64,000 bases of DNA, taken from positions 275,157 to 339,156 of the forward strand of contig JBFMHM010000001.1 of the NCBI GenBank assembly GCA_040753015.1, read 5' to 3'. The first letter of the stretch is position 1. The number at the start of each line of letters is the position of its first letter. Positions 23,977 through 64,000 of this stretch are shown one piece after another. A program made the translations under genes and the position numbers. Below the pieces are notes generated by a model. It searched no databases, was not told where the DNA came from, and saw nothing but the letters and a program-made list of their open reading frames with translations. This stretch comes from Candidatus Omnitrophota bacterium (GTDB lineage Bacteria > Omnitrophota > Gorgyraeia > Gygaellales > JBFMHM01).

Positions 23977-23982
23977 AATTCG

Positions 23983-24375: not shown

Positions 24376-24378
24376 AAC

Positions 24379-25627: not shown

Positions 25628-25628
25628 T

Positions 25629-49480: not shown

Positions 49481-49486
49481 TGCCAC

Positions 49487-49545
49487 ACCTCCATTGCAAC
49501 CGCTAAAGCGCTAAATACGCTAAAGCGCTAAATATTATTAACAAC
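49487..49545 (+). promoter_or_regulatory. Conserved ~60-nt leader upstream of dnaK: RBS GGAGGTG, the inverted core TTGCAACCGC, and four TTTAGCG(C) units (two AGCGCT palindromes with centres 17 nt apart)
   Basis: Transcribed strand: TTGTTAATAATATTTAGCGCTTTAGCGTATTTAGCGCTTTAGCGGTTGCAATGGAGGTG. A near-identical block lies upstream of gene 55935-57488 (57489-57548). Confidence 0.7.
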
Positions 49546-49905: not shown

Positions 49906-49906
49906 T

Positions 49907-49986
49907 TTGCGCTTTTGCTATTTTTGCTTCTTTGCGGTTGCAACTTTTTTGCGCTTTTGCTATTTTTGCTTCTTTGCGGTTGCAAC
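49907..49986 (+). repeat. Perfect tandem duplication of a 40-nt unit containing GCGGTTGCAAC
   Basis: tttgcgcttttgctatttttgcttctttgcggttgcaact x2. The first unit is the 5' leader of the GxxExxY gene; the second forms the last codons of grpE (VATAKKQK). Confidence 0.85.
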
Positions 49987-50523
49987 TTTGACCTTTGCCG
50001 TCCTAATTACACGGTCTTCTAATTTGTAGCCTTTTTGCAATTCTTCAATCACAACATTCTCTGGGAATTTATCTGTTTCTTCAACTAATAAAGCCTCATG
50101 CATACTCGGATCAAACTTTTTTCCCTTTGCCTCAATTGGCAAAAGCCCTTTCTTTTTTAATAATTCGTAAAGATGCGCTAAAATCATTTCTATCCCTTTT
50201 AAAAAAGTAGTAAAATCTTCTCTTTCTTCTTCCGCGGCTTCAACTGTACGCTCGAGATCATCTAAAATACCAAGTAATTCAACAATCAATCCTTCATTAG
50301 CAAACTTAATAAACAAATCTTGTTCTTTCTGCATCCTTTTTCTTACATTATCAAATTCTGCCTGTAACCTCAAATATTTATCCCAGCAATCTTTGGCTTT
50401 TTTAGCTTCTTCTCTTAATAAAATAAGCTCATCTTCATTAATCGAAATTAACTTTTTTTCATCTTGAGGATGCAAAATTTCCTCTTCTGGCTTATCTTCT
50501 TTTTTATTATTCATCAATTTCAC
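49960..50523 (-). CDS. grpE: Nucleotide exchange factor GrpE
   Basis: 187 aa, GrpE profile. C-terminal residues are encoded by the repeat (possible 3' alteration). Confidence 0.85.
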   Translation of the reverse strand: MKLMNNKKEDKPEEEILHPQDEKKLISINEDELILLREEAKKAKDCWDKYLRLQAEFDNVRKRMQKEQDLFIKFANEGLIVELLGILDDLERTVEAAEEEREDFTTFLKGIEMILAHLYELLKKKGLLPIEAKGKKFDPSMHEALLVEETDKFPENVVIEELQKGYKLEDRVIRTAKVKVATAKKQK

Positions 50524-51256
50524 CGAAAAAATCAGATAAAAGACACGACGTATATTCGATCAAAGGTATAACTTGAGAATAACGAAGACGCGTTGGGCCT
50601 AATACAGCAATCCTGCCAGCAGGCCTAGCTTTTCTTTTATAAGTAGATATAATCATTGTACAATCCTTCATTTCATCTATAATGTTTTCTTGGCCAATAT
50701 AAATTTTCAAAGGTTCTTCGATATTCTGATTAATTGTCTTTAATAAATTCTCTTTTTCTTCTAATGCGCCAAACAATGCACGCAATTTTTTGATATCGTT
50801 AAATTCCGGATGCTCAAAGATAAAAGAAGTACCATTAAAATAAATTTTATGCTCCCAATCCGTAAATGACACGAGGCTTGGATAATGCGATAATCTTGCC
50901 AGCATGTCCGAAGCTTTTTCAAGAAACTCTGAAATATCTAAATTATCAAAATCTAACTCCTTGCTTATCATTTCCTTTTGACACCCCTGTATTTCATTAT
51001 GGCCTAAAATATTATCTACATAAAAACGATATCCCTTATCGGTCGGGATCCTCCCGGCAGAAGTATGTGGATGTGTTATAAATTCCATCTCCTCTAAATC
51101 TGCCATGGCATTACGAATAGTAGCAGAACTTAAACCAAAATTAAACTCTTTAGCAATAAATTCTGAACTTATCGGAAACGAGTTAGCGATAAAAGACTCT
51201 ATTATTGCGCCAAGTATATTTTTCCGTCTTGCCTCTAAATCAGCTATTCTAATCAT
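50507..51256 (-). CDS. hrcA: Heat-inducible transcription repressor HrcA (short form)
   Basis: N-terminal winged-helix with HrcA-like context (hrcA-grpE-dnaK-dnaJ). A CIRCE lies upstream. Confidence 0.7.
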   Translation of the reverse strand: MIRIADLEARRKNILGAIIESFIANSFPISSEFIAKEFNFGLSSATIRNAMADLEEMEFITHPHTSAGRIPTDKGYRFYVDNILGHNEIQGCQKEMISKELDFDNLDISEFLEKASDMLARLSHYPSLVSFTDWEHKIYFNGTSFIFEHPEFNDIKKLRALFGALEEKENLLKTINQNIEEPLKIYIGQENIIDEMKDCTMIISTYKRKARPAGRIAVLGPTRLRYSQVIPLIEYTSCLLSDFFGEIDE

Positions 51257-51271
51257 ATTAATTCCCCTATT

Positions 51272-51298
51272 TTAGCAATCTCAAGCTGCGAGTGCTAA
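51272..51298. promoter_or_regulatory. CIRCE operator (HrcA binding site)
   Basis: TTAGCAATC-tcaagctgc-GAGTGCTAA matches TTAGCACTC-N9-GAGTGCTAA with one mismatch. Lies 16 nt upstream of the hrcA start. Confidence 0.8.
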
Positions 51299-51322
51299 AA
51301 ATGAATTTTAGCATAAATGAAA

Positions 51323-52669
51323 TTAGAATGCAACTTTTTTTATTAATTTTTTAAACTCTGGGAAAGATTTATTTACACAAGAAATATCATCAAGCCTAGA
51401 ACAGCCTTGCGCGGCTAATGCAGCAATTACTAAACTCATTGCGCTACGATGATCATTAAAACTCTTTAATTTCACGCCTCTTAATTTAACAGGCCCATTT
51501 ATAATAATTGTATCGTCTTTTTTAACTTCTATATTTGCGCCCATTTTTCTTAAATTAACTACCATAGAGCTAATCCGGTCTGTTTCTTTGACGCGTAATT
51601 CTTTAGCTTGTTCAATTATAGTAGTGCCGCAAGCCATACACGCTGCAACCATTAAAATAGGTATCTCGTCAATTAAAAGAGGCAACTCCTGATGTTTAAT
51701 CCTAGTTGCCCGTAGGGGGCGAGCATGCCTGCCCCCTACTACTACAATATCACCAATCGGCTCCCCGCTTTCAATTCTATAATTTTTAATTTTAATATCC
51801 GCATTCATACGTAAAAGTACCTTTAAAGCACCTGTACGCGTAGGATTTAAACCCACATTCCTAATTATTATTTCTGAACCAAAAATAATTAAAGCAGCGA
51901 CGATAAAAAATATTGCCGAAGAAAAATCTCCTGGTATAATAATTTCTCCTGGTGAAACTAATTGTTTTATCTGATTCAAGGAAATTAAACGGCCTGTCTT
52001 ATTTTTTCCGCCTATAGCGGAAATTTTTATATCAGCACCAAATAATTTTAACATCCGCTCTGTATGGTCACGGCAAACCTGTGATTCAATTATTCCAGTC
52101 TTACCCTTCGCATAAAGTCCGGCCAAAAGAATTGCTGACTTAACCTGCGCTGAAGCAACCTCTAATTTATATTTTATCCCGTGCAACTCTGCTGGTTTTA
52201 TAGTTAATGGCGGATAATATTCTCGTTTTGCGTTTTTCGCTTTGCACTTTGCACTTATTTCTGCCCCCATCAATTCTAAAGGCTTAATTACACGCCCCAT
52301 TGGCCGCTTATTCAAAGAAGGGGCAGCTTGTAATTTACTTTTGAATTTTTGCCCTACAAGTAAACCGAGCAGTATCCTTATTGTTGTACCAGATTCACCA
52401 GCATAGAGAGGGGTTTGAGGCGGCCTTAAACCAAACAAACCTTTGCCTTGAATTTGCGCCAAAGTTTTTTTTCTATTAATTTTAATACCTAGTCGTTTAA
52501 AAATTCTTAAGGTGTAAAAACAATCACGGCTTGAAGAAAAATTTTTAATTTTAGTTAAACCCTTGCCTATGGATGCTAGGATTATAGCCCGGTGAGTTAT
52601 TGATTTATCAAAAGGGATTTTAATATCCCCTTTTACTTTCGATGCTGGCTTAACTAAAAAAGAAATCAT
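51323..52669 (-). CDS. aroA: 3-phosphoshikimate 1-carboxyvinyltransferase (EPSP synthase)
   Basis: KSITHRAIILASIG, LYAGESGTTIR and VKETDRISSMVVNLRKMGANIE match AroA motifs. Confidence 0.8.
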   Translation of the reverse strand: MISFLVKPASKVKGDIKIPFDKSITHRAIILASIGKGLTKIKNFSSSRDCFYTLRIFKRLGIKINRKKTLAQIQGKGLFGLRPPQTPLYAGESGTTIRILLGLLVGQKFKSKLQAAPSLNKRPMGRVIKPLELMGAEISAKCKAKNAKREYYPPLTIKPAELHGIKYKLEVASAQVKSAILLAGLYAKGKTGIIESQVCRDHTERMLKLFGADIKISAIGGKNKTGRLISLNQIKQLVSPGEIIIPGDFSSAIFFIVAALIIFGSEIIIRNVGLNPTRTGALKVLLRMNADIKIKNYRIESGEPIGDIVVVGGRHARPLRATRIKHQELPLLIDEIPILMVAACMACGTTIIEQAKELRVKETDRISSMVVNLRKMGANIEVKKDDTIIINGPVKLRGVKLKSFNDHRSAMSLVIAALAAQGCSRLDDISCVNKSFPEFKKLIKKVAF

Positions 52670-53424
52670 TGCTCAACTTTAAGAATAAGATTATCTCCTT
52701 CTTTTAGCTTACCAACGATATCTCTCTCTGTAAAGCTTAAAACGGACATAGCTTCTTTTGCTTCCTCGATATAGCCCTTGCCGAGTGATACACCTTTAGA
52801 ATCATTTATAAAGAATACATCTGATGTTTTAAATCCGTCTTTTTGCCCTAAATTAATCACTATAAAGTTGTATTCTTTATTTAAAGTCAAAATTTGCGCC
52901 TGAAACTTGTCAGTCTTCTTAGGGCTGATTATAATTTTCCCGAGCTCGACTTTATCTGATGATGACTCAAATTCTTTCACTTTTTCTTCTAATTTCTGTT
53001 TTGCTTTTACAAGATCAGAGAATTTCGCTTTTGCCTCGCTTAACTCTTTCTTTGTTTGATTAAGTTCTATCTCTATCTTAGACTTTAAATTATTCATTGA
53101 ATTTAAATCAGCTTTTACCTCGTCTAATTCTTTGGAAACTCTCTGCCTTTCACTTTTTTCAGATTCAAATTGGCTAACTAATGATAATAAATCTGCCTCG
53201 CTTTCTGAAAGTTTATCTTTTAAAATAACTACTTCTTTACGCGTTGCATCCAAAGTCATCTCTAAATCTTTTTTCCTTTTTTGCAGATCATCAACTTGCG
53301 CTTCTAAACCAATCCTTTTATCTTTCTCTTTCTGCCAAGATAAAAATGTTGATACTGCCGCACCAAAAGCAAGCACTACTAATACTACTAAAAATATTAT
53401 CCTTGTATTACCATTCCTATTCAT
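52666..53424 (-). CDS. Membrane-anchored coiled-coil protein (252 aa)
   Basis: N-terminal TM helix, then a long heptad-rich E/K/L region. Confidence 0.4.
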   Translation of the reverse strand: MNRNGNTRIIFLVVLVVLAFGAAVSTFLSWQKEKDKRIGLEAQVDDLQKRKKDLEMTLDATRKEVVILKDKLSESEADLLSLVSQFESEKSERQRVSKELDEVKADLNSMNNLKSKIEIELNQTKKELSEAKAKFSDLVKAKQKLEEKVKEFESSSDKVELGKIIISPKKTDKFQAQILTLNKEYNFIVINLGQKDGFKTSDVFFINDSKGVSLGKGYIEEAKEAMSVLSFTERDIVGKLKEGDNLILKVEQ

Positions 53425-54992
53425 CTTTCACCTCGTTTATTTTTTGAATATTTTTTAGATTTTTCAATTGCCTTACTAAAATACCCGCCAGTCAAAGCAT
53501 CTATTGATGCCGTTAATTCCTCAAGCCGCAGTTCTTTTTCTATAATCTTGCGAGTATCTTGCGGAGGAGACATAAAAAGTTCTGCCTGCAGCCGGCGCCT
53601 CTCAAAATAAATACGGGTAACCTCATTTAAAATATCATCGCGCAACTGCACCATTAGACGGCTACGAACGTCGATAGATGTTTGATCTGGGTTATATATT
53701 AAATCTGCTAAATCCCACTTAAAATTTACTCCCCAATCTTTTGGCCCAACCGCAAAAGCCCCTGTTGATGAACCATAGACATTTTTATCATAGGCTAAAT
53801 CCAACTCTGGTAAAAACGCTCTTGCAGCTGCCTGTCTTCGCCAATTTATGATTTTTTGAGGGCTGACTTCTGCATATTTTATAGCAACTTTTTGCACATC
53901 TTGAATAGTTGGCTCATCCTTAAAATGCTCTAAAATATTTTTTTCGTCTTTAACAATTTTATTATCTCTTATTAATTCTTCTTTGGACCTATATAAACCT
54001 TGCTGTGTCGCTAATAAAAAATTATCTTCAATATCTTGAAATAAAAATCTTAAATTCTCTGAATCAAGGCCGCGGTATAGGTTATGCCAAATTTCATCTT
54101 TATATTCAAAAATACTTCTCTTTGATAAAACATAAAGGTTATTTTCCTTTGAAACAAAAACCTGAATTAATTTTCTATCAAATAATCCTTGTTCATTAAA
54201 CTTCTGCCAAGTTCCAGCATCGTCTTCTGATTTAAAAATCCCGAATATTGTTGCTAAATAAAAAATATTATGTTTTTTTCTATCTTGGGCAATAAAATTT
54301 ATTTGCGAAATACTTGTTTCCTCGCTAAGCTTATCATCATCGCTATTCTCATCGCTTTCTTCGGTATCTTGCGCAATCCAGGTAAAAATTCTCTGCCAAT
54401 ACTGGCCTAAATCGAGTGATTTAAAAACACCTCTACTTGAAACAGCATATAAAACTTTCGGATTACTATAATCTGCTATTATATTCAAAACCTCTGTATT
54501 TAGTAAATCGCCGCTAACCTTATTCCAAGTTTTTAAATCATCACTATAGAAAAGCCCGTAATCTGTAGCAAGAAAAATCCTATTCAGGCTAACACAAACA
54601 TAATTGCAATTCTTTTCTCCTCGGCTTTTTCCGTCAAAAACTTTATTCCAATTACGGCCGTCATTTTTACTAATAAACAACCCATTGCCGGTTGCAGCAA
54701 AAAGAATATTTCGTTTTTTATATTGAAAATAAGACAAATAATTTACGGTTTTAGTATCCCCTGTGACATTTAAAACTTCCTGAGCCTCTTTTTCTTTTAT
54801 AACTTTTAAAACTGAGCGGTCTGTGCCAACAAAGATTATATCTTTATTTTTTGGGTGAACGCATACTGAATAGAAATTAAAATCCGGGCCAAGGTTAAGT
54901 TGCTGCCAAACTGTTTCTTTTGCGGCAAATGTATGAATTGGGAAAAAAATAAAACAAATTAATATTCCCAAAAATAATTTAGCCCTGCCCAT
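53421..54992 (-). CDS. Secreted BNR/Ycf48-like beta-propeller repeat protein
   Basis: Signal peptide. Repeated D-G-x-x-W-type blades (DGRNWNKV, DLKTWNKV, DAGTWQKF). Confidence 0.5.
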   Translation of the reverse strand: MGRAKLFLGILICFIFFPIHTFAAKETVWQQLNLGPDFNFYSVCVHPKNKDIIFVGTDRSVLKVIKEKEAQEVLNVTGDTKTVNYLSYFQYKKRNILFAATGNGLFISKNDGRNWNKVFDGKSRGEKNCNYVCVSLNRIFLATDYGLFYSDDLKTWNKVSGDLLNTEVLNIIADYSNPKVLYAVSSRGVFKSLDLGQYWQRIFTWIAQDTEESDENSDDDKLSEETSISQINFIAQDRKKHNIFYLATIFGIFKSEDDAGTWQKFNEQGLFDRKLIQVFVSKENNLYVLSKRSIFEYKDEIWHNLYRGLDSENLRFLFQDIEDNFLLATQQGLYRSKEELIRDNKIVKDEKNILEHFKDEPTIQDVQKVAIKYAEVSPQKIINWRRQAAARAFLPELDLAYDKNVYGSSTGAFAVGPKDWGVNFKWDLADLIYNPDQTSIDVRSRLMVQLRDDILNEVTRIYFERRRLQAELFMSPPQDTRKIIEKELRLEELTASIDALTGGYFSKAIEKSKKYSKNKRGER

Positions 54993-55012
54993 TCTTTATC
55001 TACCTCCACTTA

Positions 55013-55031
55013 TCCAACCTAGGCGGTCGGA
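55013..55031 (+). repeat. Terminal inverted repeat (left) of the MNT-like module
   Basis: cctaggcggtcggatttag. Its partner at 55667-55683 is ctaatccgacctacgcc (reverse complement ggcgtaggtcggattag). Confidence 0.6.
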
Positions 55032-55042
55032 TTTAGTTATAT

Positions 55043-55507
55043 TTATCTAGATCGTTTATTTTTAAATTTTAATAAATAATCTACGTCAATCTTGTCTATC
55101 GGCCGATTAGAAATTTTCTTACTCTTTATTAATTCTCTAAACCCGATAATTATAATTTTTTGTCCGGCTATTTTAGAAGTTTTTCTGCCACGCCATATTT
55201 CTTTAAATTTACTTCCGCTTATCGAAGTTAAAAGATCAACTCTTACAGGTTCATACCCAAGTTGTATAATTGCTCCTTCTCTCTCAAAGTCTTCTGGTTT
55301 CAATTTTAGACTACTAAAACCAAACTCTCTAAGTGATTTTATGATTTTTTTACCATTTTCTAAATCAGGCTCAACTAATAAATCTATATCTTTACTATAT
55401 CTTGGTTTTGAATAAAACGCAACAGCATACGCCCCGACAACGCAATACCTAACTTTATTCTTATTGAATAACTTTAATAACTCTTTGAAGTCCTTTTCTA
55501 ATTCCAT
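55043..55507 (-). CDS. Minimal nucleotidyltransferase-fold protein (MNT/AbiEii-like)
   Basis: 154 aa. VRYCVVGAYAVAFYSKPRYSKDIDLLV is the GG..A...YG..R.T.DID nucleotidyltransferase pattern. Confidence 0.5.
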   Translation of the reverse strand: MELEKDFKELLKLFNKNKVRYCVVGAYAVAFYSKPRYSKDIDLLVEPDLENGKKIIKSLREFGFSSLKLKPEDFEREGAIIQLGYEPVRVDLLTSISGSKFKEIWRGRKTSKIAGQKIIIIGFRELIKSKKISNRPIDKIDVDYLLKFKNKRSR

Positions 55508-55652
55508 ATTTACCTTTAATTTTATAATAATCTTCTCTTAAGGATTGCATCAGCGCAAGTTTTTTTGCGCCAGACATAGCTAAATAAAATTTAATATCAG
55601 ACTCTTCTGCTTCTTTAAACGAATGCGCTATATTTACCCAAATCTTTTTCAT
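55461..55652 (-). CDS. Small partner protein (63 aa) overlapping the nucleotidyltransferase gene
   Basis: Overlaps 55043-55507 by 47 nt on the same strand. Likely the antitoxin-like partner. Confidence 0.35.
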   Translation of the reverse strand: MKKIWVNIAHSFKEAEESDIKFYLAMSGAKKLALMQSLREDYYKIKGKYGIRKGLQRVIKVIQ

Positions 55653-55715
55653 TTTCTCTTTTTCCTAATCCGACCTACGCCTTATCCCATTCTGTCAGAA
55701 TTGGAAGTCACAAAT

Positions 55716-55925
55716 TATGATCTCCAATTCTTAAACTCTTCCTTATTCAATCGAAACATAAAGTCTTCCGGAAACCGCTCAATATTACACTTCGTCGCTT
55801 GATTAAGCACTCTTGTAGATACTTCATATAGAATAGCTAAATCCCTGTCTAGCATAACTCTCTTGCCTCTAATTAATAAGATTTTATTCTCAATAATTTC
55901 TCGAGGTATAAATTCTTTAATTTTT
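55716..55925 (-). pseudogene. ORF6N-domain gene remnant (N-terminal ~65 codons, start codon lost, premature stop)
   Basis: ...[64 protein letters not shown] is homologous at DNA and protein level to the 5' third of the ORF6N genes at 57542-58075 and 59693-60220. Confidence 0.7.
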
Positions 55926-55934
55926 TATTAGTTT

Positions 55935-57488
55935 CTATTTTCGAGGCCTGACCCCGGTTTTGCTGACTTCTACTTTTAATGGTTCGACGTCAGCACGCAC
56001 AGCTTTTACTTCCCAATAGAATTTTTGATTTTGGTTTCCATCTTTTGTTGTAGCAACTTTAAACTTGCTATCTGCTATTTTACCATCTAGATAAATTAAT
56101 GATGCTCCGTCAATACAAGTTAATTGCAAAGTACGATTTTCTTTTCTGGTAAGTTTTTCAAAATATGCTGGTAATATAATTTCAACCTTACCGTCTTTTA
56201 ACTGCGCCTCTCCCCGATAGTAAACTGCAACCTCTGGTCCTTCAATGCAAGCATGAACTAAATCTTTATTTTGTGGGTTGAGTGGGTGATCAATTACAAA
56301 ATTTTTTACTCTTGCTGCAACAACCCCCGTAACATCAAAATTGCCTTTTATATAGACATTACCTGTAAAAACAGCAATATTATCACCGTAATCGGTGTCA
56401 CGTCCTACCATTAGTCTTGAACCATACAAGCCTTTTCCGCCAGTAAAATATCCTCCATAAGATTGATCACTACGAGTAAAACCTTCCACTCCCCGATATT
56501 GATCCGACCAACCATACACGCCACAAGAAGCAACGCCTTGAGCAGCACCAGCTACTCCATGTACATCATTATTTTCAAATAAAGCCGCCTGTCCAAACAC
56601 ACTTGCACTAAAGTTAAAAATCCGATTAGTATCACCTATTAAACCATACACAGCTGCATTTCTATTATGCACACCCGTCCAACTAACCCTCCCCATAACA
56701 CCATAAGCATGATTATCTCCCGCATCCACATATCCAAAAACTCCTGTTGGTCTATCTGAAAGACTATTCTCAGGAAAATCATCAGCAACATAGCCCATAA
56801 CACCCGATGGACTATCCGCATTAGAATGAGACAAGCCTAATACACCGTAAGTATTCCCGGCTATGGCAAGAGCCTCACCGTACAACCCTGCTGCTCCATC
56901 AAAAGTAGAAGAGGTAACACCATATACACCATAAGTAGGACCTTGCGTTGATTTTCCAAATACACCTGCTGAATATTGCCTAGCTGAATTTGTTTTACCC
57001 GCAACTCCATGTGCATAATGATTCCGACTATTATCTGGAAGAATCGTCTCGCCATATACACCGGCTGAAAACGACTCTTCATTAAAATCATTCTCGGGTA
57101 TCCACATACCACTATTAACCTGTCCATGCACACCATAGTACATAGTATCATTTCTTCCAACCAAACCCTGTCCTAATATTGCACTAGCATAATCCCTAGT
57201 ACGATTATATTGTGCATACAACGTAGTACCATAATCGGATCCCGCGCCTTCTGGTGGAGAATAAATACCACCTACTTGCAAAAGAGCTAAAAATCCCCCA
57301 CTCAAGAACTGCTCCTGCGCGCCTTCGCCAGTTGTACCTATCCACATCCTCTTTGCTTTTAGTTCGTTATATACGCCATAAGGCGCGGGGTAATAGGTTG
57401 AAAGCGTGATGGTTTCTTCTTGGGCGAAAGAATTAACACCACTAAACAACAAAAACACAAAAACTAATCTGAAAATTTTACTTTGCAT
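55935..57488 (-). CDS. Secreted glycine/tyrosine-rich repeat protein (517 aa)
   Basis: Signal peptide. ~14 irregular x-G-V-x-G-x repeats (SAGVYGE, AHGVAGK, TYGVYGV, TGVFGY...). Non-repetitive C-terminal ~120 aa. Confidence 0.6.
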   Translation of the reverse strand: MQSKIFRLVFVFLLFSGVNSFAQEETITLSTYYPAPYGVYNELKAKRMWIGTTGEGAQEQFLSGGFLALLQVGGIYSPPEGAGSDYGTTLYAQYNRTRDYASAILGQGLVGRNDTMYYGVHGQVNSGMWIPENDFNEESFSAGVYGETILPDNSRNHYAHGVAGKTNSARQYSAGVFGKSTQGPTYGVYGVTSSTFDGAAGLYGEALAIAGNTYGVLGLSHSNADSPSGVMGYVADDFPENSLSDRPTGVFGYVDAGDNHAYGVMGRVSWTGVHNRNAAVYGLIGDTNRIFNFSASVFGQAALFENNDVHGVAGAAQGVASCGVYGWSDQYRGVEGFTRSDQSYGGYFTGGKGLYGSRLMVGRDTDYGDNIAVFTGNVYIKGNFDVTGVVAARVKNFVIDHPLNPQNKDLVHACIEGPEVAVYYRGEAQLKDGKVEIILPAYFEKLTRKENRTLQLTCIDGASLIYLDGKIADSKFKVATTKDGNQNQKFYWEVKAVRADVEPLKVEVSKTGVRPRK

Positions 57489-57548
57489 TAAGCACCTCCA
57501 TTGCAGCCGCTAAAGCGCAAAATACGCTAAAGCGCTAAATTTTATTGA
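57489..57548 (+). promoter_or_regulatory. Second copy of the dnaK-type leader (RBS GGAGGTG, TTGCAGCCGC, 4x TTTAGCG-like units)
   Basis: Transcribed strand: TTGTCAATAAAATTTAGCGCTTTAGCGTATTTTGCGCTTTAGCGGCTGCAATGGAGGTG. Confidence 0.7.
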
Positions 57549-58075
57549 CAACCTTTTTTAATATCACGGTTTGGATGAAAACCAATTATTTTCTTTTCTT
57601 TAACCGTCGGCGGTTCAAACAAATTTCTAAGCGCATCAAAAACCATTTTAAAATGCGAGTCATATTTCTTTTCCATCGTTTCAATCTTACGCCTTAACGC
57701 TGTATAAGTCAACGCCATACGTTTAAAATTAACAAATGCGCGCATAATCTGTATATTTGCCATTACCGCACGCCTACTGCGTAAAACGCTTGAAAGCATA
57801 GCCACGCCTTGCTCGGTAAATGCATAAGGCAAATAACCACCTAAAACCTGTAGCGATGGTATCACATTTTGTGATACCATAATTTTAACTTCTGCATTTG
57901 TAATTCGAAACATAAAATCTTCGGGAAATCGCTCTCGATTCCTTTTTACTTGCTGCCTCAGCGCTATGGGCTTAACATCATAAAGAACCGCTAAATCTTT
58001 ATCTAACATTACCCTTTTGCCTCTAATCTGAAAAATCTTATTCTCAATCTGCTCAACTGATAACGATCTACTCAT
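57542..58075 (-). CDS. ORF6N-domain protein (KilA-C/anti-repressor-associated domain family), copy A
   Basis: 177 aa. [47 protein letters not shown] is the ORF6N signature. Confidence 0.7.
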   Translation of the reverse strand: MSRSLSVEQIENKIFQIRGKRVMLDKDLAVLYDVKPIALRQQVKRNRERFPEDFMFRITNAEVKIMVSQNVIPSLQVLGGYLPYAFTEQGVAMLSSVLRSRRAVMANIQIMRAFVNFKRMALTYTALRRKIETMEKKYDSHFKMVFDALRNLFEPPTVKEKKIIGFHPNRDIKKGCQ

Positions 58076-58078
58076 TTC

Positions 58079-58180
58079 TTAACTCCATTTTCCGAAATAA
58101 TTAACAGCACCAAAAAATAAAAACATAAAACCTAATCTAAAAATTTTATTTAATAAATCATCTAATTCTTTTTTATCCAT
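58079..58180 (-). pseudogene. Remnant of a GxxExxY gene 5' end fused to cassette sequence
   Basis: MDKKELDDLLNK... vs MDKQQLDELSNK of the intact GxxExxY gene, then divergent (IFRLGFMFLFFGAVNYFGKWS*). An identical copy lies at 60224-60325. Confidence 0.5.
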
Positions 58181-58208
58181 TTTTGCGTTTTTGCGGTTGC
58201 AACACTTC

Positions 58209-58250
58209 TTTGCGCCTTTGCGGTTGCAATCTTTTGCATCAAACACCTCC
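58209..58250 (+). repeat. 42-nt cassette-boundary repeat, copy 1 (-10-like TATATT nearby, RBS GGAGGTG, uORF MQKIATAKAQ...)
   Basis: tttgcgcctttgcggttgcaatcttttgcatcaaacacctcc, identical at 60354-60395 and 61136-61177. Confidence 0.85.
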
Positions 58251-58261
58251 ATAAAATAAAA

Positions 58262-58681
58262 TTAAAGTTTACAATATAAAACTATTTCTTCTAGGTATTT
58301 TTCAATATCGCTCAACTGATTTGTAAAAATATTAAAAACTTTATTCATATCTATTTTGGCATATTCATGAACGATAACATTGCGAAAACCTGCCATAGAA
58401 CACATAATTTCTAACATCTCTCGACTGATAACTTTTTTTTCATACAAAACATCAAACAAGCCTGAAAAACTCCCCGGTATCCCCCAATCATTATCGGAAA
58501 TAATATGGCTTGCAATATCGATACAACCTTGAATCGCATCCAATAAATTTATACGCACAATATCTTGAACATCTCTATTGTTTAAAAAATTACCTAAACT
58601 AATCCCTTGTTTTTCTTTGAGGCGAGATAAACTATCATTGATATTGGCAATTTTTGCTATAACAATATCACGCTTAACCAT
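58262..58681 (-). CDS. hepT: HepT-like HEPN toxin (DUF86)
   Basis: 139 aa with Rx4HxY motif (RNVIVHEY). Overlaps the upstream mntA by 8 nt. Confidence 0.75.
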   Translation of the reverse strand: MVKRDIVIAKIANINDSLSRLKEKQGISLGNFLNNRDVQDIVRINLLDAIQGCIDIASHIISDNDWGIPGSFSGLFDVLYEKKVISREMLEIMCSMAGFRNVIVHEYAKIDMNKVFNIFTNQLSDIEKYLEEIVLYCKL

Positions 58682-59105
58682 GTTTGCGCTCCTTAATCCT
58701 TCTTATTAACGCATCCTCCATATTTCTTCGTATAAAAAGAAAATCAAAGTATTCCAATACTGCGTACACTTTAAAATTGCGATTTGCCCCTTTATAAGAT
58801 TCGTAAACTTCTACGCCATTTTTTAATACCTGATATTTTAAAAAAGAATTTGCATTATTTAAAATTACAATATCAATATTCTTATCAAAAATCTTACTCA
58901 AATCATTCATTATAGACAGTTTTCTATCGCTATATTCCTGTATCGAGATATTCTCATTAAGAAAAACAGCAATATCAATATCGCTAAATTTATTTGTTTT
59001 ATTAGATGCTGCGGAACCAAACAAATAGGCAAACTTTATTTTTCGTTGAGCAGAAAAATATCCATTTAATTTTTCTTTAATATCGCTAATGGTTAAATTA
59101 TACAT
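58674..59105 (-). CDS. mntA: MntA-like nucleotidyltransferase antitoxin
   Basis: GSAASNKTNKFSDIDIAV is the GSx9-13DxD nucleotidyltransferase motif. Confidence 0.75.
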   Translation of the reverse strand: MYNLTISDIKEKLNGYFSAQRKIKFAYLFGSAASNKTNKFSDIDIAVFLNENISIQEYSDRKLSIMNDLSKIFDKNIDIVILNNANSFLKYQVLKNGVEVYESYKGANRNFKVYAVLEYFDFLFIRRNMEDALIRRIKERKHG

Positions 59106-59108
59106 ATT

Positions 59109-59492
59109 TCAGATTATACTATAAAATTCTTTTTCTTTCTCAGTCTTTGTTTTCGAAAGAATCAATAGATGATTCGTCCAACTTATTTGTGTCAGCAGTG
59201 CTGACACAAATTTTTTCTGATGATAAGCGTCATGAAACTGCCACATCCGGTATAGCCGTCGCCGATTAAAACCTTTAAATTCCGGATGTTTGCTTTGAAT
59301 ATAACAAGCCAGTTGATCTACTGCCGCATCACCCCACTCAGCAGTCTTAAGCTTATTACTTATATATCCACCAACATTCCAATATAATTTTACGAGTTCG
59401 GCATTAACGCTTTTAATAGCATTAAAACGAGCCTCATGAATCATCCTAACGACTTCGGAAAACTGATTATCAAGCCGTTTAACTATTTTCAT
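59109..59492 (-). pseudogene. DUF1016 (YhcG-like PDDEXK nuclease) N-terminal fragment, 127 aa of ~350
   Basis: LYWNVGGYISNKL...GDAAVDQLACYIQSKHPEFKGFNRRRLYRMWQFHDAY...LLTQISWTNHLLILSK...KEFY matches the DUF1016 N-terminal region. The nuclease domain is absent. Confidence 0.55.
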
Positions 59493-59529
59493 TTATCTTC
59501 CTGCCTACAATTTTATCTCTATCATTAAA

Positions 59530-59589
59530 GTAGGGGCGAAACCATGTTTTCGCCCCAATAATTTGGGCGATTACACGGAATCGCCCCTA
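59530..59589. repeat. Nested GC-rich palindromic element in AT-rich intergenic DNA
   Basis: GTAGGGGCGA...TCGCCCCTAC outer 10-bp inverted repeat enclosing hairpins GGGGCGAAAccatgTTTTCGCCCC and GGGCGAttacacggaaTCGCCC. Confidence 0.6.
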
Positions 59590-59692
59590 CGAACATTAAA
59601 AACATAAAAATTATTTTTAAAACATTTTTCTTTTGCATCAAACACCTAAAAATTTGCTCTGTAAATTTTTTATCCCGAAGCATACGAGAAAA

Positions 59693-60220
59693 TTATCCTT
59701 TTTTAATATCACGGTTTGGATGAAAACCAATTATTTTCTTTTCTTTAACCGTCGACGGTTCAAACAAATTTCTAAGCGCATCAAAAACCATTTTAAAATG
59801 CGAGTCATATTTCTTTTCCATCGTTTCAATCTTACGCCTTAACGCTGTATAAGTCAACGCCATACGTTTGAAATTAACAAATGCGCGCATAATTTGTATA
59901 TTTGCCATTACCGCACGCCTACTGCGTAAAACGCTTGAAAGCATAGCCACGCCTTGCTCGGTAAATGCATAAGGCAAATAACCACCTAAAACCTGTAGCG
60001 ATGGTATCACATTTTGTGATACCATAATTTTAACTTCTGCATTTGTAATTCGAAACATAAAATCTTCGGGAAATCGCTCTCGATTCCTTTTTACTTGCTG
60101 CCTCAGCGCTATGGGCTTAACATCATAAAGAACCGCTAAATCTTTATCTAACATTACCCTTTTGCCTCTAATCTGAAAAATCTTATTCTCAATCTGCTCA
60201 ACTGATAACGATCTACTCAT
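59693..60220 (-). CDS. ORF6N-domain protein, copy B (near-identical paralogue)
   Basis: 175 aa, differs from copy A by 1-2 residues (PPT->PST). Part of the ~700-bp duplicated block. Confidence 0.7.
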   Translation of the reverse strand: MSRSLSVEQIENKIFQIRGKRVMLDKDLAVLYDVKPIALRQQVKRNRERFPEDFMFRITNAEVKIMVSQNVIPSLQVLGGYLPYAFTEQGVAMLSSVLRSRRAVMANIQIMRAFVNFKRMALTYTALRRKIETMEKKYDSHFKMVFDALRNLFEPSTVKEKKIIGFHPNRDIKKG

Positions 60221-60353
60221 TTCTTAACTCCATTTTCCGAAATAATTAACAGCACCAAAAAATAAAAACATAAAACCTAATCTAAAAATTTTATTTAATA
60301 AATCATCTAATTCTTTTTTATCCATTTTTGCGTTTTTGCGGTTGCAACACTTC

Positions 60354-60395
60354 TTTGCGCCTTTGCGGTTGCAATCTTTTGCATCAAACACCTCC
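60354..60395 (+). repeat. 42-nt cassette-boundary repeat, copy 2
   Basis: Identical 42-mer. Confidence 0.85.
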
Positions 60396-60426
60396 AGTAT
60401 TTAAAAATTTACAATATAAAATTATT

Positions 60427-60756
60427 TTACAAATAAATGACCTTGCCTGTTCTCTTTATTTCAGAAAGAAAATCAAGTTTATTTTTCACATTGAATTCTT
60501 TTGATGTGTAACCTTTCGCTTCAATTGGCTTCATTATCCTTGCAGCTGCAATGCCAAGAACCTCAAGCCTTTCCCGTAAATTCATTTTTTTAAAATCATT
60601 CGATATAACAGCAACATCAATATCACTGTCTTTACGTTCTTTTCCTCTTACAAATGAACCATAAAGAATCACCTTTTCAATATTAATCCCTAATGTTTGC
60701 AACATCTCTTTATATTCACTTATATATTTTTTAATCTTATATCCTGCTTTAAACAT
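60427..60756 (-). CDS. MNT nucleotidyltransferase (HI0073-like)
   Basis: YGSFVRGKERKDSDIDVAVI motif. Confidence 0.75.
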   Translation of the reverse strand: MFKAGYKIKKYISEYKEMLQTLGINIEKVILYGSFVRGKERKDSDIDVAVISNDFKKMNLRERLEVLGIAAARIMKPIEAKGYTSKEFNVKNKLDFLSEIKRTGKVIYL

Positions 60757-61115
60757 TTTATTATCTCCATGGTTTTATCTAGATATTTTTTAGTAATATT
60801 TTTTGGATAATTAGATACAAGCCTCGATAAATCTTCTGGATATCTTGTTACCACTCCAGCATTATTAATTATGCCAACAAAATCTAATAAATCCGCAGAT
60901 AACTTAATTTTTCCAAGATCCAATAAATAAATTAGGTCATGCGTTTTCGGAGGAAGTTTATTTATCGCTTCAGAAACAATTGCCTTAAGAACTTTTTCAA
61001 TTGCCAAATGACACATAAAAATAACATAAACATACCGCCCCGTCTTAAACATTTGTTTAGCGGTTGTTAGATCATATTCCACCATATTTAGCCAATTTTT
61101 AGTCTCTTTATTCAT
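60720..61115 (-). CDS. HEPN-domain protein (HI0074-like), upstream partner of the MNT
   Basis: 131 aa HEPN fold with a C-terminal RYPEDL-type motif. Overlaps the MNT gene by 37 nt. Confidence 0.7.
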   Translation of the reverse strand: MNKETKNWLNMVEYDLTTAKQMFKTGRYVYVIFMCHLAIEKVLKAIVSEAINKLPPKTHDLIYLLDLGKIKLSADLLDFVGIINNAGVVTRYPEDLSRLVSNYPKNITKKYLDKTMEIIKCLKQDIRLKNI

Positions 61116-61135
61116 TTCGCGCTTTTATTTTTTAT

Positions 61136-61177
61136 TTTTGCGCCTTTGCGGTTGCAATCTTTTGCATCAAACACCTC
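61136..61177 (+). repeat. 42-nt cassette-boundary repeat, copy 3
   Basis: Identical 42-mer, here followed on the transcribed strand by uORF MQKIATAKAQK* and the HEPN gene. Confidence 0.85.
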
Positions 61178-61266
61178 CAATTTAGAATTGTTATATTATG
61201 TGGACGAGACAACCTTGCTCCTACTTAAATTAATAAATACATAAATTTTTTATATTATACCATAGT

Positions 61267-62211
61267 TTATTTATCATTTAAAAAATTTTTAAACTCTATT
61301 GGTAAATCGCTCTTAAACTCCATTATTTCTTTTGTGCGGGGATGAGGGAATTTTATACTTTTGGCGTGTAAAAACATACGCGAAGATAGGGGCAAACTGC
61401 CGTTTGCCCCTACATTTTTACCGTATTTTGTATCACCTAAAATAGGATGGCCTATTGATGCAAGATGCACCCGTAATTGGTGGGTGCGGCCGGTTTGCGG
61501 AATAAGCTCTAAAAAAGACCAATTTTTTGTTCTTTTTAATGTTTTATAATACGTTAAAGCGTTTTTTTCATCACGTGATATACCTGTAGTCATTCTACGA
61601 AAATCCTTTGGGTGCTTGCCAATGCTTGAGTCAATTCGGCCTTCATCAAATTGAATCTCACCATAAACCACTGCAATATATTGGCGGCTAATTAAATGGC
61701 GGGAAAATTGTTTTACAAAAAAATAGTGTGCTTGATTATTCTTTGCAATAAGCATTAACCCTGATGTTTCTTGGTCAAGCCGATGCACAATTCCCGGCCG
61801 AGTTGGATCAACTGTTGAAAGCTGTTTTCCTAAAAATACAAGCCCATTAACAAGTGTATTATCCCAATTGCCCGGCGCAGGATGCACAACTAATCCTGCC
61901 TGTTTATTTATAACAATAAGGTCATCGTCTTCATAAACAATATCTAGAGGAATATTTTGAGGAATAATTCCAATTACGGGCGCATCACGATACACCCCTA
62001 CAATAATATCGCCGGGTTTTATTTTTTGATGTGGATTAGTTTTATTGCCATTTACAGTAATATCGCCAGATAAAATCAATTTTTTAATAATTTCGCGAGA
62101 GATAGTAATAGGCTGGCCAAACTCCAACTCTACAGATAATTTTTCATGCAAATAAACATCGATGCGTTTATCTTTATCTTGCTCGCCTACTATTAGATTG
62201 ATTTCTTGCAT
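61267..62211 (-). CDS. rluD: 23S rRNA pseudouridine synthase, RluD family
   Basis: S4 domain plus pseudouridine synthase catalytic motif HRLDQETSGLML. Confidence 0.85.
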   Translation of the reverse strand: MQEINLIVGEQDKDKRIDVYLHEKLSVELEFGQPITISREIIKKLILSGDITVNGNKTNPHQKIKPGDIIVGVYRDAPVIGIIPQNIPLDIVYEDDDLIVINKQAGLVVHPAPGNWDNTLVNGLVFLGKQLSTVDPTRPGIVHRLDQETSGLMLIAKNNQAHYFFVKQFSRHLISRQYIAVVYGEIQFDEGRIDSSIGKHPKDFRRMTTGISRDEKNALTYYKTLKRTKNWSFLELIPQTGRTHQLRVHLASIGHPILGDTKYGKNVGANGSLPLSSRMFLHAKSIKFPHPRTKEIMEFKSDLPIEFKNFLNDK

Positions 62212-62924
62212 TTGAATAAAAATATTCCCGCCATTATAAATACCCCTATTGATATTACCTGAAACAATGTCAGTCCGTGAAATACTACTGGATTATCTGC
62301 TCTAAAAAATTCGATAATAAAACGTCCTGCAGAATATAGCGTCAAATATGTATAAAAAACACAACCTAATGCAAGTTTTTTTGTTTGTAGGTATCTTAAA
62401 AATAAAAATAGAATTGTTAAATAGAATACAGAATATATCTGTGTGGGTATAGCCCAATAATTAAGATTTGGAAAAAAAATGCCATATTTTAAAGATGCCT
62501 TGCCATAGCAACACCCATTTAAAAAACATCCTATCCTCCCGATTGCTTGAGCTATAGCAACAAATGGCACAGAAAAATCAAAAATTTTCAATACGGAAAA
62601 TTTCTTTCTTCTTATCAACACAATAGCCGCTAAAATACCAGCAAATAAACCTCCGAAAAACGATAACCCTCCATGATTAAGCATAAATATTTCTAAAGGG
62701 CTGGCTAGATATTCTTTAAGGTGTTCTAAAACATAAAAAACTCTTGCTCCTAACACCCCGGAAATTATCACCCAAAAACCTATATCATAGATAAATTCTT
62801 TTGGGATATCAAATTTTGACGCTTGCTTCTCGGCAAAAAATACTGCCATAAAGAAACCGAGCGCCACCATCGCGCCGTAGGAATAAATTGTTATTGGACC
62901 AAAATTAAATAGTATTGGGTACAT
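62193..62924 (-). CDS. lgt: Prolipoprotein diacylglyceryl transferase
   Basis: 243 aa Lgt signature (GARVFYVLEH, IGRIGCFLNGCCYGK). Confidence 0.85.
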   Translation of the reverse strand: MYPILFNFGPITIYSYGAMVALGFFMAVFFAEKQASKFDIPKEFIYDIGFWVIISGVLGARVFYVLEHLKEYLASPLEIFMLNHGGLSFFGGLFAGILAAIVLIRRKKFSVLKIFDFSVPFVAIAQAIGRIGCFLNGCCYGKASLKYGIFFPNLNYWAIPTQIYSVFYLTILFLFLRYLQTKKLALGCVFYTYLTLYSAGRFIIEFFRADNPVVFHGLTLFQVISIGVFIMAGIFLFKCKKSI

Positions 62925-62989
62925 AATTTTAGTGTAAAATTCAAAGCGAAAAATGTAAAACTGAAGTGTAAAACTTTAAATTTTAAGCT

Positions 62990-63469
62990 TTAACTTTGCA
63001 CTTTTCGCTTTACGTTTTGCGCTTTAATTATCTGTAACATAAACCATGCTATTGATATAGTTATTGCGCTATCGGCAATATTAAAAACCGGCCAAATATG
63101 AAAATCTATGAAATCAATAACATAGCCAAAGCGAACCCTATCGACTAAATTACCTATTGTCCCGCCTAAAAATAATCCAAGCAAGATAGGATTTATATTT
63201 GTATCTTTTTTAATTAATATTAAATATATTATATAAAATATCACAAAAATAGCTGTGACTATAAAGATAAAGGTAAGATTATGCAATATACCAAACGCCG
63301 CGCCAGTATTTTTTACTAAACTAAAACTAAGGACATTAGGTATAATTGAAATTGATTTTTCTGAATAAAGAAATTTCCCGACGAGTAATTTCGTTAATTG
63401 ATCAACGAACAGAACACTAAAGCTAACTAAAGTTATGATTTTTCCTTTGCCTCTTGGCATTTCAAACAA
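62990..63469 (-). CDS. lspA: Lipoprotein signal peptidase II
   Basis: NTGAAFG and FNIADSAI motifs. Confidence 0.85.
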   Translation of the reverse strand: MFEMPRGKGKIITLVSFSVLFVDQLTKLLVGKFLYSEKSISIIPNVLSFSLVKNTGAAFGILHNLTFIFIVTAIFVIFYIIYLILIKKDTNINPILLGLFLGGTIGNLVDRVRFGYVIDFIDFHIWPVFNIADSAITISIAWFMLQIIKAQNVKRKVQS

Positions 63470-63906
63470 AGCCTTGCGTAAGGAACTACTTTTAGCCTAA
63501 TTTTTGCTATCTGACCATGACATACCTCACATAGGCCAAATGTTTTTTCTTCAATACGTTTCAAAGCATCTTCGATTTCATAAAGCGCATCTTGCTCGCT
63601 TGATGCAAGGCTCAAAGAAAACTCCCTGTCATAAGTATCTGTAGCAGCATCTGCCATATGATAAGAATAACCAGATATATCGCCAGAAGCCTCCTTCTGA
63701 GATTTTCTTAAAGTCGTATCTGCAATATGCTTTATAGTGTCTAAAATTTCTTCTTTTCTTTTAATAATAAGCGATTTATAAAACTTAATATCTTTCTTGG
63801 TAAAACCCTTGACCTTATGCTGCGCTGTTTTTTTAATCGGATTTTTTAATATTTTTTTCTTAACTATTTTTGAATATTTTTTAATATTTTTTTTCGCCTT
63901 AACCAT
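63433..63906 (-). CDS. DksA/TraR-family C4 zinc-finger regulator
   Basis: CEVCHGQI...CLKCQ C4 finger at the C-terminus. Confidence 0.7.
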   Translation of the reverse strand: MVKAKKNIKKYSKIVKKKILKNPIKKTAQHKVKGFTKKDIKFYKSLIIKRKEEILDTIKHIADTTLRKSQKEASGDISGYSYHMADAATDTYDREFSLSLASSEQDALYEIEDALKRIEEKTFGLCEVCHGQIAKIRLKVVPYARLCLKCQEAKEKS

Positions 63907-64000
63907 TATTTCCTCCGTAATCTATTTTATCGCTTCTATGCAACGAGCGCAAACTAAAGGATGCGTTGAATCACTGCCAGTGTTTAAGCTATAATTCCAA

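Follow-up and report, generated by a model that had tools for sequence, protein, structure and literature searches.

How does a run of small genes come to have the same short sequence repeated between them? The question is raised by a locus near the end of a 64,000-nucleotide (nt) stretch of contig JBFMHM010000001.1 (positions 275,157 to 339,156 of the forward strand), from a metagenome-assembled genome (MAG) of a Candidatus Omnitrophota bacterium. This whole stretch is called the window, and all coordinates refer to it unless another contig is named. A preliminary description reported an array of toxin-antitoxin (TA) and defence genes behind a thrice-repeated 42-nt element, which it read as a portable expression module in an integron-like system without an integrase. 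The answer proposed here is different. The repeat is best read as a recombination junction, in which the copied start of a secreted-protein gene meets the arm end of a cassette that resembles the intervening sequences (IVS) of 23S rRNA, and which was multiplied by local duplication. The probability of this reading is put at about 65%. From the sequences compared, the recurrent portable entity appears to be a pair of arms, TTGCAACCGC...GCGGTTGCAA, normally placed around a GxxExxY gene and with the Shine-Dalgarno site (SD) of the next gene at its right end.

Anatomy of the repeated element

The repeat, TGGAGGTGTTTGATGCAAAAGATTGCAACCGCAAAGGCGCAAA, is present in three exact copies, all on the minus strand, and part of it is present in a fourth, degenerate copy.

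61137-61179, minus strand: copy 3, an exact match with its ATG at 61167-61165, the sole copy outside the 702-nt duplication described below
60354-60396, minus strand: copy 2, inside duplicated unit B
58209-58251, minus strand: copy 1, inside duplicated unit A
59630-59649, minus strand: degenerate copy of the SD and start, TTAGGTGTTTGATGCAAAAG, 20 nt with 2 mismatches and without arm

No copy was seen in 100 shuffles, and 0 are expected by chance. The three exact copies of the preliminary description are therefore real, with the size corrected from 42 to 43 nt. The 5' 22 nt of the 43-mer are TGGAGGTG-TTTG-ATG-CAAAAGA, which is an SD, a 4-nt spacer, a start and three codons. The 3' 21 nt are TTGCAACCGCAAAGGCGCAAA, which is the outer end of a left inverted-repeat arm. 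From the ATG, a short open reading frame (ORF) reads the stop-poor arm in the frame ATT-GCA-ACC-GCA-AAG, for 11 codons in copy 3 (61167-61132) and for 25 codons in copies 1 and 2. The element does have the anatomy first proposed for it, a ribosome binding site followed by a short upstream ORF, with a strong SD, an ATG and 11 or 25 codons, and this reading seems functionally reasonable. The degenerate copy, which had been placed at about 59621-59655, exists at 59630-59649 as the SD-start part only, and it runs on unbroken into a signal-peptide remnant, MQKKNVLKIIFMFLMFVG.

The SD-start half of the 43-mer is echoed in a resident gene. Read on the minus strand from 58251, the region contains a host gene start (22 nt), two left-arm units, 12 codons of a GxxExxY gene, the signal peptide of a paralogue, ORF6N-A, TGGAGGTG and a gene for a 517-aa protein, in that order.

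57550-58251, minus strand: duplicated unit A (43-mer, arms, remnants and ORF6N-A), the twin of unit B at 59695-60396
58181-58229, minus strand: two tandem left-arm units (58229-58209 and 58202-58181), with the same pair in unit B at 60326-60374
58145-58180, minus strand: GxxExxY 5' remnant of 12 codons, MDKKELDDLLNK, with its unit B copy at 60290-60325
58093-58144, minus strand: signal-peptide remnant ..KIFRLGFMFLFFGAVNYF.. of a paralogue of the 517-aa gene, in frame with the 43-mer ATG after removal of the arm
57542-58075, minus strand: ORF6N-A (Pfam ORF6N, 108.8 bits; PADLOC PDC-S05)
57501-57541, minus strand: right arm TTTAGCGCTTTAGCGTATTTTGCGCTTTAGCGGCTGCAA, near-identical to the right arm upstream of dnaK
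57486-57500, minus strand: SD TGGAGGTG (57500-57493) and ATG (57488-57486) of the 517-aa gene, directly touching the right arm
55935-57488, minus strand: 517-aa secreted protein with signal peptide MQSKIFRLVFVFLLFSG, no Pfam family, 100% identical to a Candidatus Omnitrophota MAG protein, the resident gene echoed in the 43-mer
59693-60220, minus strand: ORF6N-B, in the near-identical duplicated unit B

The 517-aa gene begins with TGGAGGTG-CTTA-ATG-CAAAGT, and its start is the SD-start part of the 43-mer with 3 mismatches. When the arm block and the GxxExxY remnant (the stretch between ..AAGA and AAATTTTTAGA) are excised from copies 1 and 2, an in-frame MQKKIFRLGFMFLFFGAVNYF is restored. The DNA of this restored paralogue at 58093-58151 has 85% identity to the signal-peptide region of the 517-aa gene (57425-57483). 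The 43-mer module is probably a relic of the resident gene and not a portable part.

The arms around ORF6N-A come with traces of a GxxExxY gene on both sides. The 5' remnant MDKKELDDLLNK is identical at 31 of 36 nt to the start of the intact GxxExxY gene at 49905 (MDKQQLDELSNK), and the last codons of ORF6N-A (..GCQ*) together with the next 40 nt align with the GxxExxY 3' end and the right arm of the grpE/dnaK cassette described below. From these 5' and 3' remnants and the arms, it follows that ORF6N-A occupies a GxxExxY cassette that has been gutted of its own gene and stands before the 517-aa gene.

Units A and B are 702 nt long with 3 mismatches (99.6% identity; 58251-57550 versus 60396-59695). 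Because copies 1 and 2 both lie in this duplication, they are not independent. Unit B breaks off where the GxxExxY 3' remnant would start, which marks it as an incomplete duplicate instead of a separate insertion. At least one step of the array was thus a plain segmental duplication of 702 nt. The source is a MAG and the ORF6N units are near-identical, so the repeats might be suspected of coming from mis-joined strain variants in the assembly. Such an artefact is extremely improbable: the units are told apart by those 3 substitutions, each has its own plausible surroundings to the left and to the right, the contig is 417 kb long, and the arm anatomy matches independent assemblies from other studies. 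As far as its sequence tells, the 43-mer is a composite of two unrelated things rather than a portable unit or a mobile promoter.

The arms and their cassettes

The arm half of the 43-mer is found again in other parts of the window, where the anatomy is better preserved.

49478-49985, minus strand: intact reference cassette grpE/GxxExxY/dnaK, with the GxxExxY gene at 49528-49905 (125 aa, TIGR04256 133.6 bits)
61116-61157, minus strand: full-length left arm TTGCAACCGCAAAGGCGCAAAAATAAAAAATAAAAGCGCGAA, which runs to the ATG of the HEPN gene and is the best nhmmer match to the arm profile in the window (27.6 bits)
23977-24402, minus strand: second cassette, with a 126-aa 23S_rRNA_IVP (S23p) gene between pgk and tpiA (gene at 23995-24375, PF05635 113.2 bits)
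62920-63035, minus strand: cargo-less hairpin with 54-nt arms of GCAAA-type words, between lspA and lgt (fold z -3.2; duplex z -5.1)

In the reference cassette, the end of grpE reads into two tandem 42-nt left-arm units (49906-49985) that precede the GxxExxY gene. On the other side the right arm ..TTTAGCGGTTGCAA (49494-49527) is followed directly by the SD TGGAGGTG (49486-49493) and then by the dnaK ATG (49480-49478). The arm TTGCAACCGCAAAGGCGCAAAAATAAAAAATAAAAGCGCGAA is homologous over its whole length to the grpE/dnaK left arm. When the window is searched with an nhmmer profile of arms from other genomes, exactly nine sites come out, seven left and two right, and all of them are at grpE/dnaK or in the array locus. 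The SD sequence follows the arms as well: TGGAGGTG occurs six times in the window, five times as the SD at an arm-linked gene start and once inside a coding sequence, and the other window genes have SD variants that differ from it.

The S23p cassette is built in the same way from different words. Its arms are complementary tandem 8-mers, with GTTCGCCA three times on one side and TGGAGAAC-type words on the other, and its right arm supplies the tpiA SD. At the cargo-less hairpin, lspA reads into the left arm, which gives it the C-terminus ..IIKAQNVKRKVQS. All cassettes lie between protein-coding genes. No rRNA is present in 49000-64000, where a search of Rfam (E <= 1) gave no match, and scanning the whole window for tRNA genes gave none either.

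The usual cassette consists of a left arm (purine-rich and often tandem), a GxxExxY nuclease-fold gene, a complementary pyrimidine-rich right arm, an SD and the next host gene. The preliminary description was right to suspect cassette-like units with a recurrent repeat at their boundary. They exist here, and the recurrent repeat is the arm pair around GxxExxY, not the 42-mer.

An arm-like GCAAA run is also seen inside aroA (51323-52669). At 52225-52255 it encodes ..SAKCKAKNAKRE.. within the EPSP synthase and is 84% complementary to 62931-62961, and it may be an in-frame arm fragment.

Pairing of the arms

Duplexes between left and right arms were calculated for ten cassettes and range from -35 to -77 kcal/mol, with z of -4.2 to -8.3 versus shuffles. 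Control flanks of 12 ordinary window genes gave z of -1.4 to +1.7. The duplex of the grpE/dnaK cassette has -38.7 kcal/mol (z -6.2) and that of the S23p cassette -36.8 kcal/mol (z -6.4). The left arm in front of HEPN (61116-61157), when combined with the right arm at 57501, gives -36.9 kcal/mol (z -7.0). The 516-nt grpE/dnaK cassette, folded as a whole (z -3.6), has a long-range stem in both the minimum free energy and the centroid structure. This stem encloses the GxxExxY start and stop codons, and the dnaK SD lies just outside it. The flanks of one GxxExxY gene in another genome (L031) showed no significant pairing at the coordinates used.

Arms in other genomes

A degenerate 21-mer of the arm was scanned against 185,579 species-representative genomes. 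It matched 112 loci versus about 35 expected by chance, the latter being our own estimate. Six uncultured MAGs have 3-7 exact-pattern matches each, versus about 0.0002 expected per genome. The six are JAHIPW01, JAUWXM01, JAUXAI01, JAUWYL01, DRGV01 and CAZDNS01. In these six multi-copy genomes TTGCAA lies 0-1 nt from the SD of a gene in 19 of the 35 matches. Those 19 are every right-oriented arm except one inner tandem unit, and the others are left-oriented with purine-rich words before them. The sequence GCGGTTGCAANGGAGG is present in 30 of the loci examined.

Filled cassettes, in the order host gene, left arm or arms, GxxExxY, right arm, SD and host gene, were found in Cloacimonadota between histidine kinase and response regulator (loci L061/L113) and in Desulfobacteraceae (L110, L117, L118). 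The same architecture is present in Omnitrophota (L157, L129-138, L159, L169, and L139/L140 at the same grpE/dnaK site). Compared with the window, L139/L140 have an identical GrpE C-terminus, a GxxExxY protein that is 62% identical, and conserved arm ends, which indicates that the grpE/dnaK insertion is old and stably inherited. The extended grpE ORF of L139 stops 4 nt after the GxxExxY ATG. The arm sequences themselves are lineage-specific (TTGCAACCGC.., ACACCGCAAAACCGC.. or CACAGAGAACACAGA..), and both sides change together and stay complementary. The frame of the upstream ORF through the arm is constant in 5 of 6 cases, which is not significant because the arm is open in two frames. In front of genes such as groES, solo right arms are seen between a sigma-70-like promoter and the SD.

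The remaining matches are of other kinds. Five matches to the arm in viral contigs were judged to be chance or unrelated. The Bacteroidota matches to the arm pattern fall upstream of tRNA genes, and they are probably unrelated, given a resemblance to the Bacteroidota TAnnTTTG -7 box. One match (L042) turned out to be ORF6N coding sequence and was rejected. A distant blastn of the locus versus plasmids and phages returned weak gene-level matches only (ORF6N and a PDDEXK protein) and none to the repeat.

Two side observations were made among these loci. In L033, L070 and L092 (MAGs CSMAG_2684 and HyVt-354) a left-arm motif is followed by a conserved two-hairpin leader (..TTCGACATTTGTCGAA..GTTCCGATAAGATCGGAAC..), which in L092 stands upstream of a 524-aa ORF that looks RNase Y-like by eye only. 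The leader may be an unrecognised 5' untranslated region element. In L159-L162 (JGI 3300045017 and others) an AbiEi/AbiEii pair is immediately preceded by a GxxExxY cassette, whose arms read ACACCGC../..GCGGTGT. The histidine-kinase gene recurs after AbiEii in L162, and this arrangement suggests a tandem or circular variant of the AbiEi/AbiEii block.

Arms that are dispersed in this way could also be the terminal inverted repeats of a non-autonomous DNA transposon, similar to miniature inverted-repeat transposable elements (MITEs) or repetitive extragenic palindromic (REP) sequences, mobilised in trans or by the GxxExxY nuclease, with the RNA pairing incidental. The multi-copy occurrence in six MAGs would fit, as would the existence of solo arms and empty hairpins, the PD-(D/E)XK fold of the usual cargo, and the fact that antisense duplexes are about as stable as sense ones. 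This is a tentative alternative that we consider rather unlikely. No short target-site duplications were found at the intact cassettes examined, and the grpE/dnaK insertion is old and stably inherited. The right end always touches an SD and the left arm is read by the upstream ORF, and so strikingly regular a placement is suggestive of selection acting on RNA or on translation. If the arms were transposon ends, the 43-mer would be a junction all the same.

Integrase, recombination sites and promoters

Could the array still be a true integron-like system, in which the 42-mer is an analogue of attC or attI combined with an expression signal, and the recombinase is encoded elsewhere? The cassettes are small and co-oriented, most of them have no recognisable promoter of their own, and the repeat stands at three boundaries. 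The rest of the evidence points away from such a system, which we regard as highly implausible. No integrase, transposase or resolvase family was found among about 50 window ORFs. On neither strand do the segments between cassettes fold better than their shuffles (z -1.8 to +0.2), and GTTRRRY has 129 matches versus 123 expected, none of them in the element. The element is on the 5' side of the genes and is a composite of gene start and arm. This composite is missing from all collections scanned: ATGCAAAAGA is upstream of the arm in 0 of the 112 genome matches to the arm, and metagenome contigs and viral contigs each gave 0 matches to the composite.

These results separate the observations of the preliminary description from its interpretation. 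It had noted the absence of intI and of an attC core, and both are indeed absent. Its integron-like or distinct cassette-shuffling system is not supported. The window has neither a recombinase family nor foldable sites, and the composite does not recur in the collections scanned. The element was also said to bound each block, and it is found at three boundaries, or four with the degenerate copy, for about seven blocks.

A 14-mer and a TATATT box had been described upstream of two of the sites. The 14-mer TTTACAATATAAAA is present twice, at 58268-58281 and 60408-60421, and its first instance lies within the HepT 3' coding sequence. No promoter-like site was found at the TATATT box, and the region in total has 28 promoter-like matches versus 26.7 expected. 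The sole good minus-strand promoter-like site is at 61282-61254, upstream of copy 3 and of the array. The idea of a portable expression module does not survive: the element is a junction composite, two of its copies come from one duplication, it has no promoter signal, and it is missing from the scanned collections.

Insertions between repeated gene starts

Direct repeats around an insertion in front of a gene are found at two further sites. One is a locus in another genome (L010; MAG CSMAG_2758, JAUXAI010000013.1, 5200-5960), where an insertion of 708 nt lies between exact 27-nt direct repeats. The repeat is taken from an ftsA-like gene, of which it has the SD, the TTG start and three codons. 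The insertion has the left arm first and no right arm, and it carries a 71-aa gene and a gene for a retropepsin-like aspartyl protease. Its junction has the form ..AAGA joined directly to TTGCAACCGC, with the frame into the arm IATAKAQ, as in the window.

The other is in the window at pgk. A 1.6-kb PIN island, placed exactly in front of the pgk ATG, has on its two sides a 45-nt direct repeat with 96% identity (25588-25632 and 27187-27231). The repeat takes in the end of the CARDB gene that lies upstream, the intergenic region and the SD of pgk. Besides the arms and the 43-mer family, the 64 kb contain no other long direct repeat in non-coding sequence. The island contains a PIN toxin (26587-27057), a 54-aa ORF, a 111-aa coiled-coil ORF and junk, and no arm motif. 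An IS30-like remnant was considered in this island and was rejected, as it has no Pfam support.

These sites suggest another way in which the array may have formed. Arm-led cassettes would enter serially after the first codons of a host gene (..AAGA joined to TTGCAACC) and would duplicate 22-45 nt of SD and start, and the regenerated start would be hit again. The exact 27-nt repeat around an insertion led by a left arm is in favour of this, as are the junction form and the arm frame shared with the window, the 45-nt SD repeat around the PIN island, and the position of HEPN-MNT between copies 3 and 2. On the other side, copies 1 and 2 are part of the 702-nt duplicated block. What has been kept of the host in copies 1 and 2 and at 59630 is longer than 22 nt and amounts to a whole signal peptide, which points to relics of paralogues instead of target-site duplications. 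An arm is missing at pgk, and there are two or three examples only. No enzyme for target duplications of 22-45 nt was found among the window ORFs, and none is known to make duplications of this size. Serial insertion is on balance an unlikely origin for this array. Campbell-type homologous integration of circles that carry the duplicated start may be another route.

The reading of the 43-mer as a duplicated junction has several points against it. The 27-nt and 45-nt repeats just described fit insertion with a long target duplication better than plain duplication. Copy 3 has only 43 nt in common with the other copies, plus 13 nt at 82% identity, and a HEPN gene adjoining an arm is found at this locus only. 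Of the source genome, the searches for the composite covered the 64-kb window, and a fourth 43-mer copy may exist elsewhere in it. Sense and antisense arm duplexes are about equally stable, which fits DNA terminal inverted repeats as well as an RNA stem.

Toxin-antitoxin and candidate defence genes of the locus

All genes of the locus are on the minus strand. Those that were not listed above are the following.

60720-61115, minus strand: HEPN (Pfam HEPN, 64.4 bits)
60427-60756, minus strand: MNT nucleotidyltransferase (Polbeta/NTP_transf_2, 49/42 bits), overlapping HEPN
59109-59492, minus strand: DUF1016_N fragment (Pfam; PADLOC PDC-S02)
58674-59105, minus strand: MntA (NCBIfam NF047752, 89.8 bits, cut-off 60)
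58262-58681, minus strand: HepT (NCBIfam NF047751, 128 bits, cut-off 60)
55715-55855, minus strand: ORF6N N-terminal remnant (Pfam)
55461-55652, minus strand: 63-aa ORF
55043-55507, minus strand: weak nucleotidyltransferase (Pfam)

HepT and MntA are a type VII TA pair, with genes that overlap by 8 nt and scores that are both above the family cut-off. The HEPN/MNT pair passes the Pfam cut-offs, and the MntA score of its MNT is 39.7, below 60. According to PADLOC, ORF6N, both nucleotidyltransferases and the DUF1016_N fragment belong to candidate defence families. The co-oriented TA and defence genes of the preliminary description were largely recovered by Pfam and NCBIfam. An arm profile search found no arm at 55043-55855, which also has no 43-mer, and the whole of 55043-57488 is without a 43-mer boundary. 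Altogether the locus is a co-oriented, decaying TA hot spot with pseudogenes and remnants, and the genes themselves are ordinary.

The HEPN gene has no SD of its own and adjoins the full left arm exactly where a GxxExxY gene would begin. HEPN-MNT has homologues with 75-81% identity that occur widely in Omnitrophota. Those in three other locus types of this phylum have their own SD, often an HTH (helix-turn-helix) gene upstream, and no arms, and the idea that HEPN-MNT is a regular arm cargo was dropped on account of these.

Homologous pairs 75-80% identical to the window pair (L141-L156 and L171-L180) occur in three contexts. In the first, an HTH gene stands before the pair, and a target of the diversity-generating retroelement type (FGE-sulfatase) and bAvd stand after it. 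In the second, the pair is followed by tail-fibre-like genes (PTL_trimer, Peptidase_S74). In the third, it occurs twice within 3 kb, squeezed to 10-14 nt from host genes.

A double hairpin at 59530-59590 (GTAGGGGCGA-N10-TCGCCC, twice, inverted) is unique in the window. It truncates the start of a secreted-protein paralogue just upstream of the DUF1016_N fragment.

Proposed origin and translation of the array

The junction reading leads to a short history. One IVS-like cassette would have lain in front of the 517-aa gene, and its GxxExxY gene would have been gutted, so that the cassette now holds ORF6N and the signal-peptide remnant. The block from the 43-mer to ORF6N would then have been duplicated (702 nt), and a third copy of the junction stands in front of HEPN-MNT. 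The array may have arisen in an accessory hot spot when paralogous gene starts and arms recombined, homologously or illegitimately, with no dedicated site-specific recombinase.

The short ORFs suggest how the genes behind the junctions could be translated. In copy 3 the short ORF ends 16 nt before the ATG of HEPN, which has no SD (61167-61132 versus 61115). In copies 1 and 2 the short ORF (58239-58162) overlaps the start of a 33-codon remnant ORF, which itself stops 3 nt before the ORF6N ATG. With stops this close to the next starts, the SD and ATG of the junction would open the short ORF, and the downstream genes would be translated by termination-reinitiation, with ribosomes passed down the chain. 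The stop of the extended grpE ORF of L139 close to the GxxExxY start would follow the same principle. The arms may pair in RNA, possibly as a substrate of RNase III as in IVS, and this pairing would leave the SD of the next gene free just outside the stem.

Meaning beyond this locus

GxxExxY and S23p genes are annotated in thousands of genomes, and we know of no function for them. Literature on GxxExxY and PDDEXK_3 yielded only a table entry, 'function unknown, multiple transfers', and no paper describing IVS-like arm cassettes in operons was found in the literature searched. In the present data these genes appear as IVS-like cassettes between essential co-transcribed genes (grpE/dnaK, pgk/tpiA), with complementary arms across phyla. 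The family seems to be a variant of IVS elements, for which the same literature searched gave no description, and this points to a wider family of which IVS elements would be one form.

The cassette anatomy gives a concrete model of RNA processing and translation coupling, which would explain how selfish genes persist in operons without polar damage, and TA genes can take over such cassettes. The array as first described would be ordinary local duplication in a TA junkyard. A bolder proposal, for which we see a small chance, is that arm-flanked IVS-type cassettes form a distinct class of mobile inserts in operons, which bring their own SD for the next gene, loop themselves out of the transcript through a long-range stem, can swap their cargo for TA genes and can hit the regenerated gene start again with target duplications of 20-45 nt. 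If this is true, an integron-like array could grow without any integrase.

The window also contains a dehydrogenase gene (UDP-glucose/GDP-mannose dehydrogenase; 36577-39303, minus strand) that is split by an intein with a LAGLIDADG domain. An uninterrupted paralogue adjoins it at 39300-40589.

Comparison with known systems

Integron arrays (IntI, attI, attC and the promoter Pc) also have small co-oriented genes behind a common upstream region, with a repeat at some boundaries. In contrast to them, this locus has no IntI (10 ORFs of the locus and 40 further window ORFs), no foldable attC and no GTTRRRY core. The 43-mer is 5' of the genes, is a chimera of gene start and arm, and has copies that come at least partly from segmental duplication.

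REP sequences and bacterial interspersed mosaic elements (BIMEs) with their REP-associated tyrosine transposase (RAYT), as well as MITEs, are like the arms in being short, dispersed, intergenic palindromic repeats, with inverted copies around a gene and solo copies at gene boundaries. GxxExxY, however, is a PD-(D/E)XK-fold protein and not a Y1 transposase, and there is no transposase family in the window. The arms differ in their asymmetry, with purines prevailing in the left one and pyrimidines in the right one, in their fixed position with respect to the SD, and in showing no target duplications at intact cassettes.

With TA and defence hot spots of the type VII HepT/MntA and HEPN/MNT kind, the locus has in common HepT/MntA, HEPN/MNT, ORF6N (PDC-S05), a DUF1016 fragment (PDC-S02) and pseudogenes. 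It differs from them in that its genes are embedded in decayed IVS-like cassettes.

ORF-bearing IVS of 23S rRNA (S23p, PF05635) are known from Coxiella burnetii and Leptospira (PMC4990558). In Coxiella the ORF of the IVS has a poor SD and is preceded by purine-rich tandem heptamers, the terminal stem is 28 bp long, and RNase III excises the element (PMC4990558). The cassettes have the same small ORF with a poor or absent SD, the same purine-rich tandem short repeats just upstream of the start codon, and the same complementary termini forming a roughly 30-bp stem around the ORF. They also have a similarly patchy phyletic distribution, which fits repeated horizontal transfer. The cargo is S23p, GxxExxY or none, and all three are present in the window, the array locus having GxxExxY remnants only. 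The two differ in location, cargo and boundaries. RNase III excision is known for IVS, which lie in helix 25 or 45 of 23S rRNA. The cassettes lie in protein-coding operons (grpE/dnaK, pgk/tpiA, two-component) and usually carry GxxExxY, or TA genes at the array locus. Their right arm carries or abuts the SD of the next gene, and their left arm is translated as the tail of the upstream ORF.

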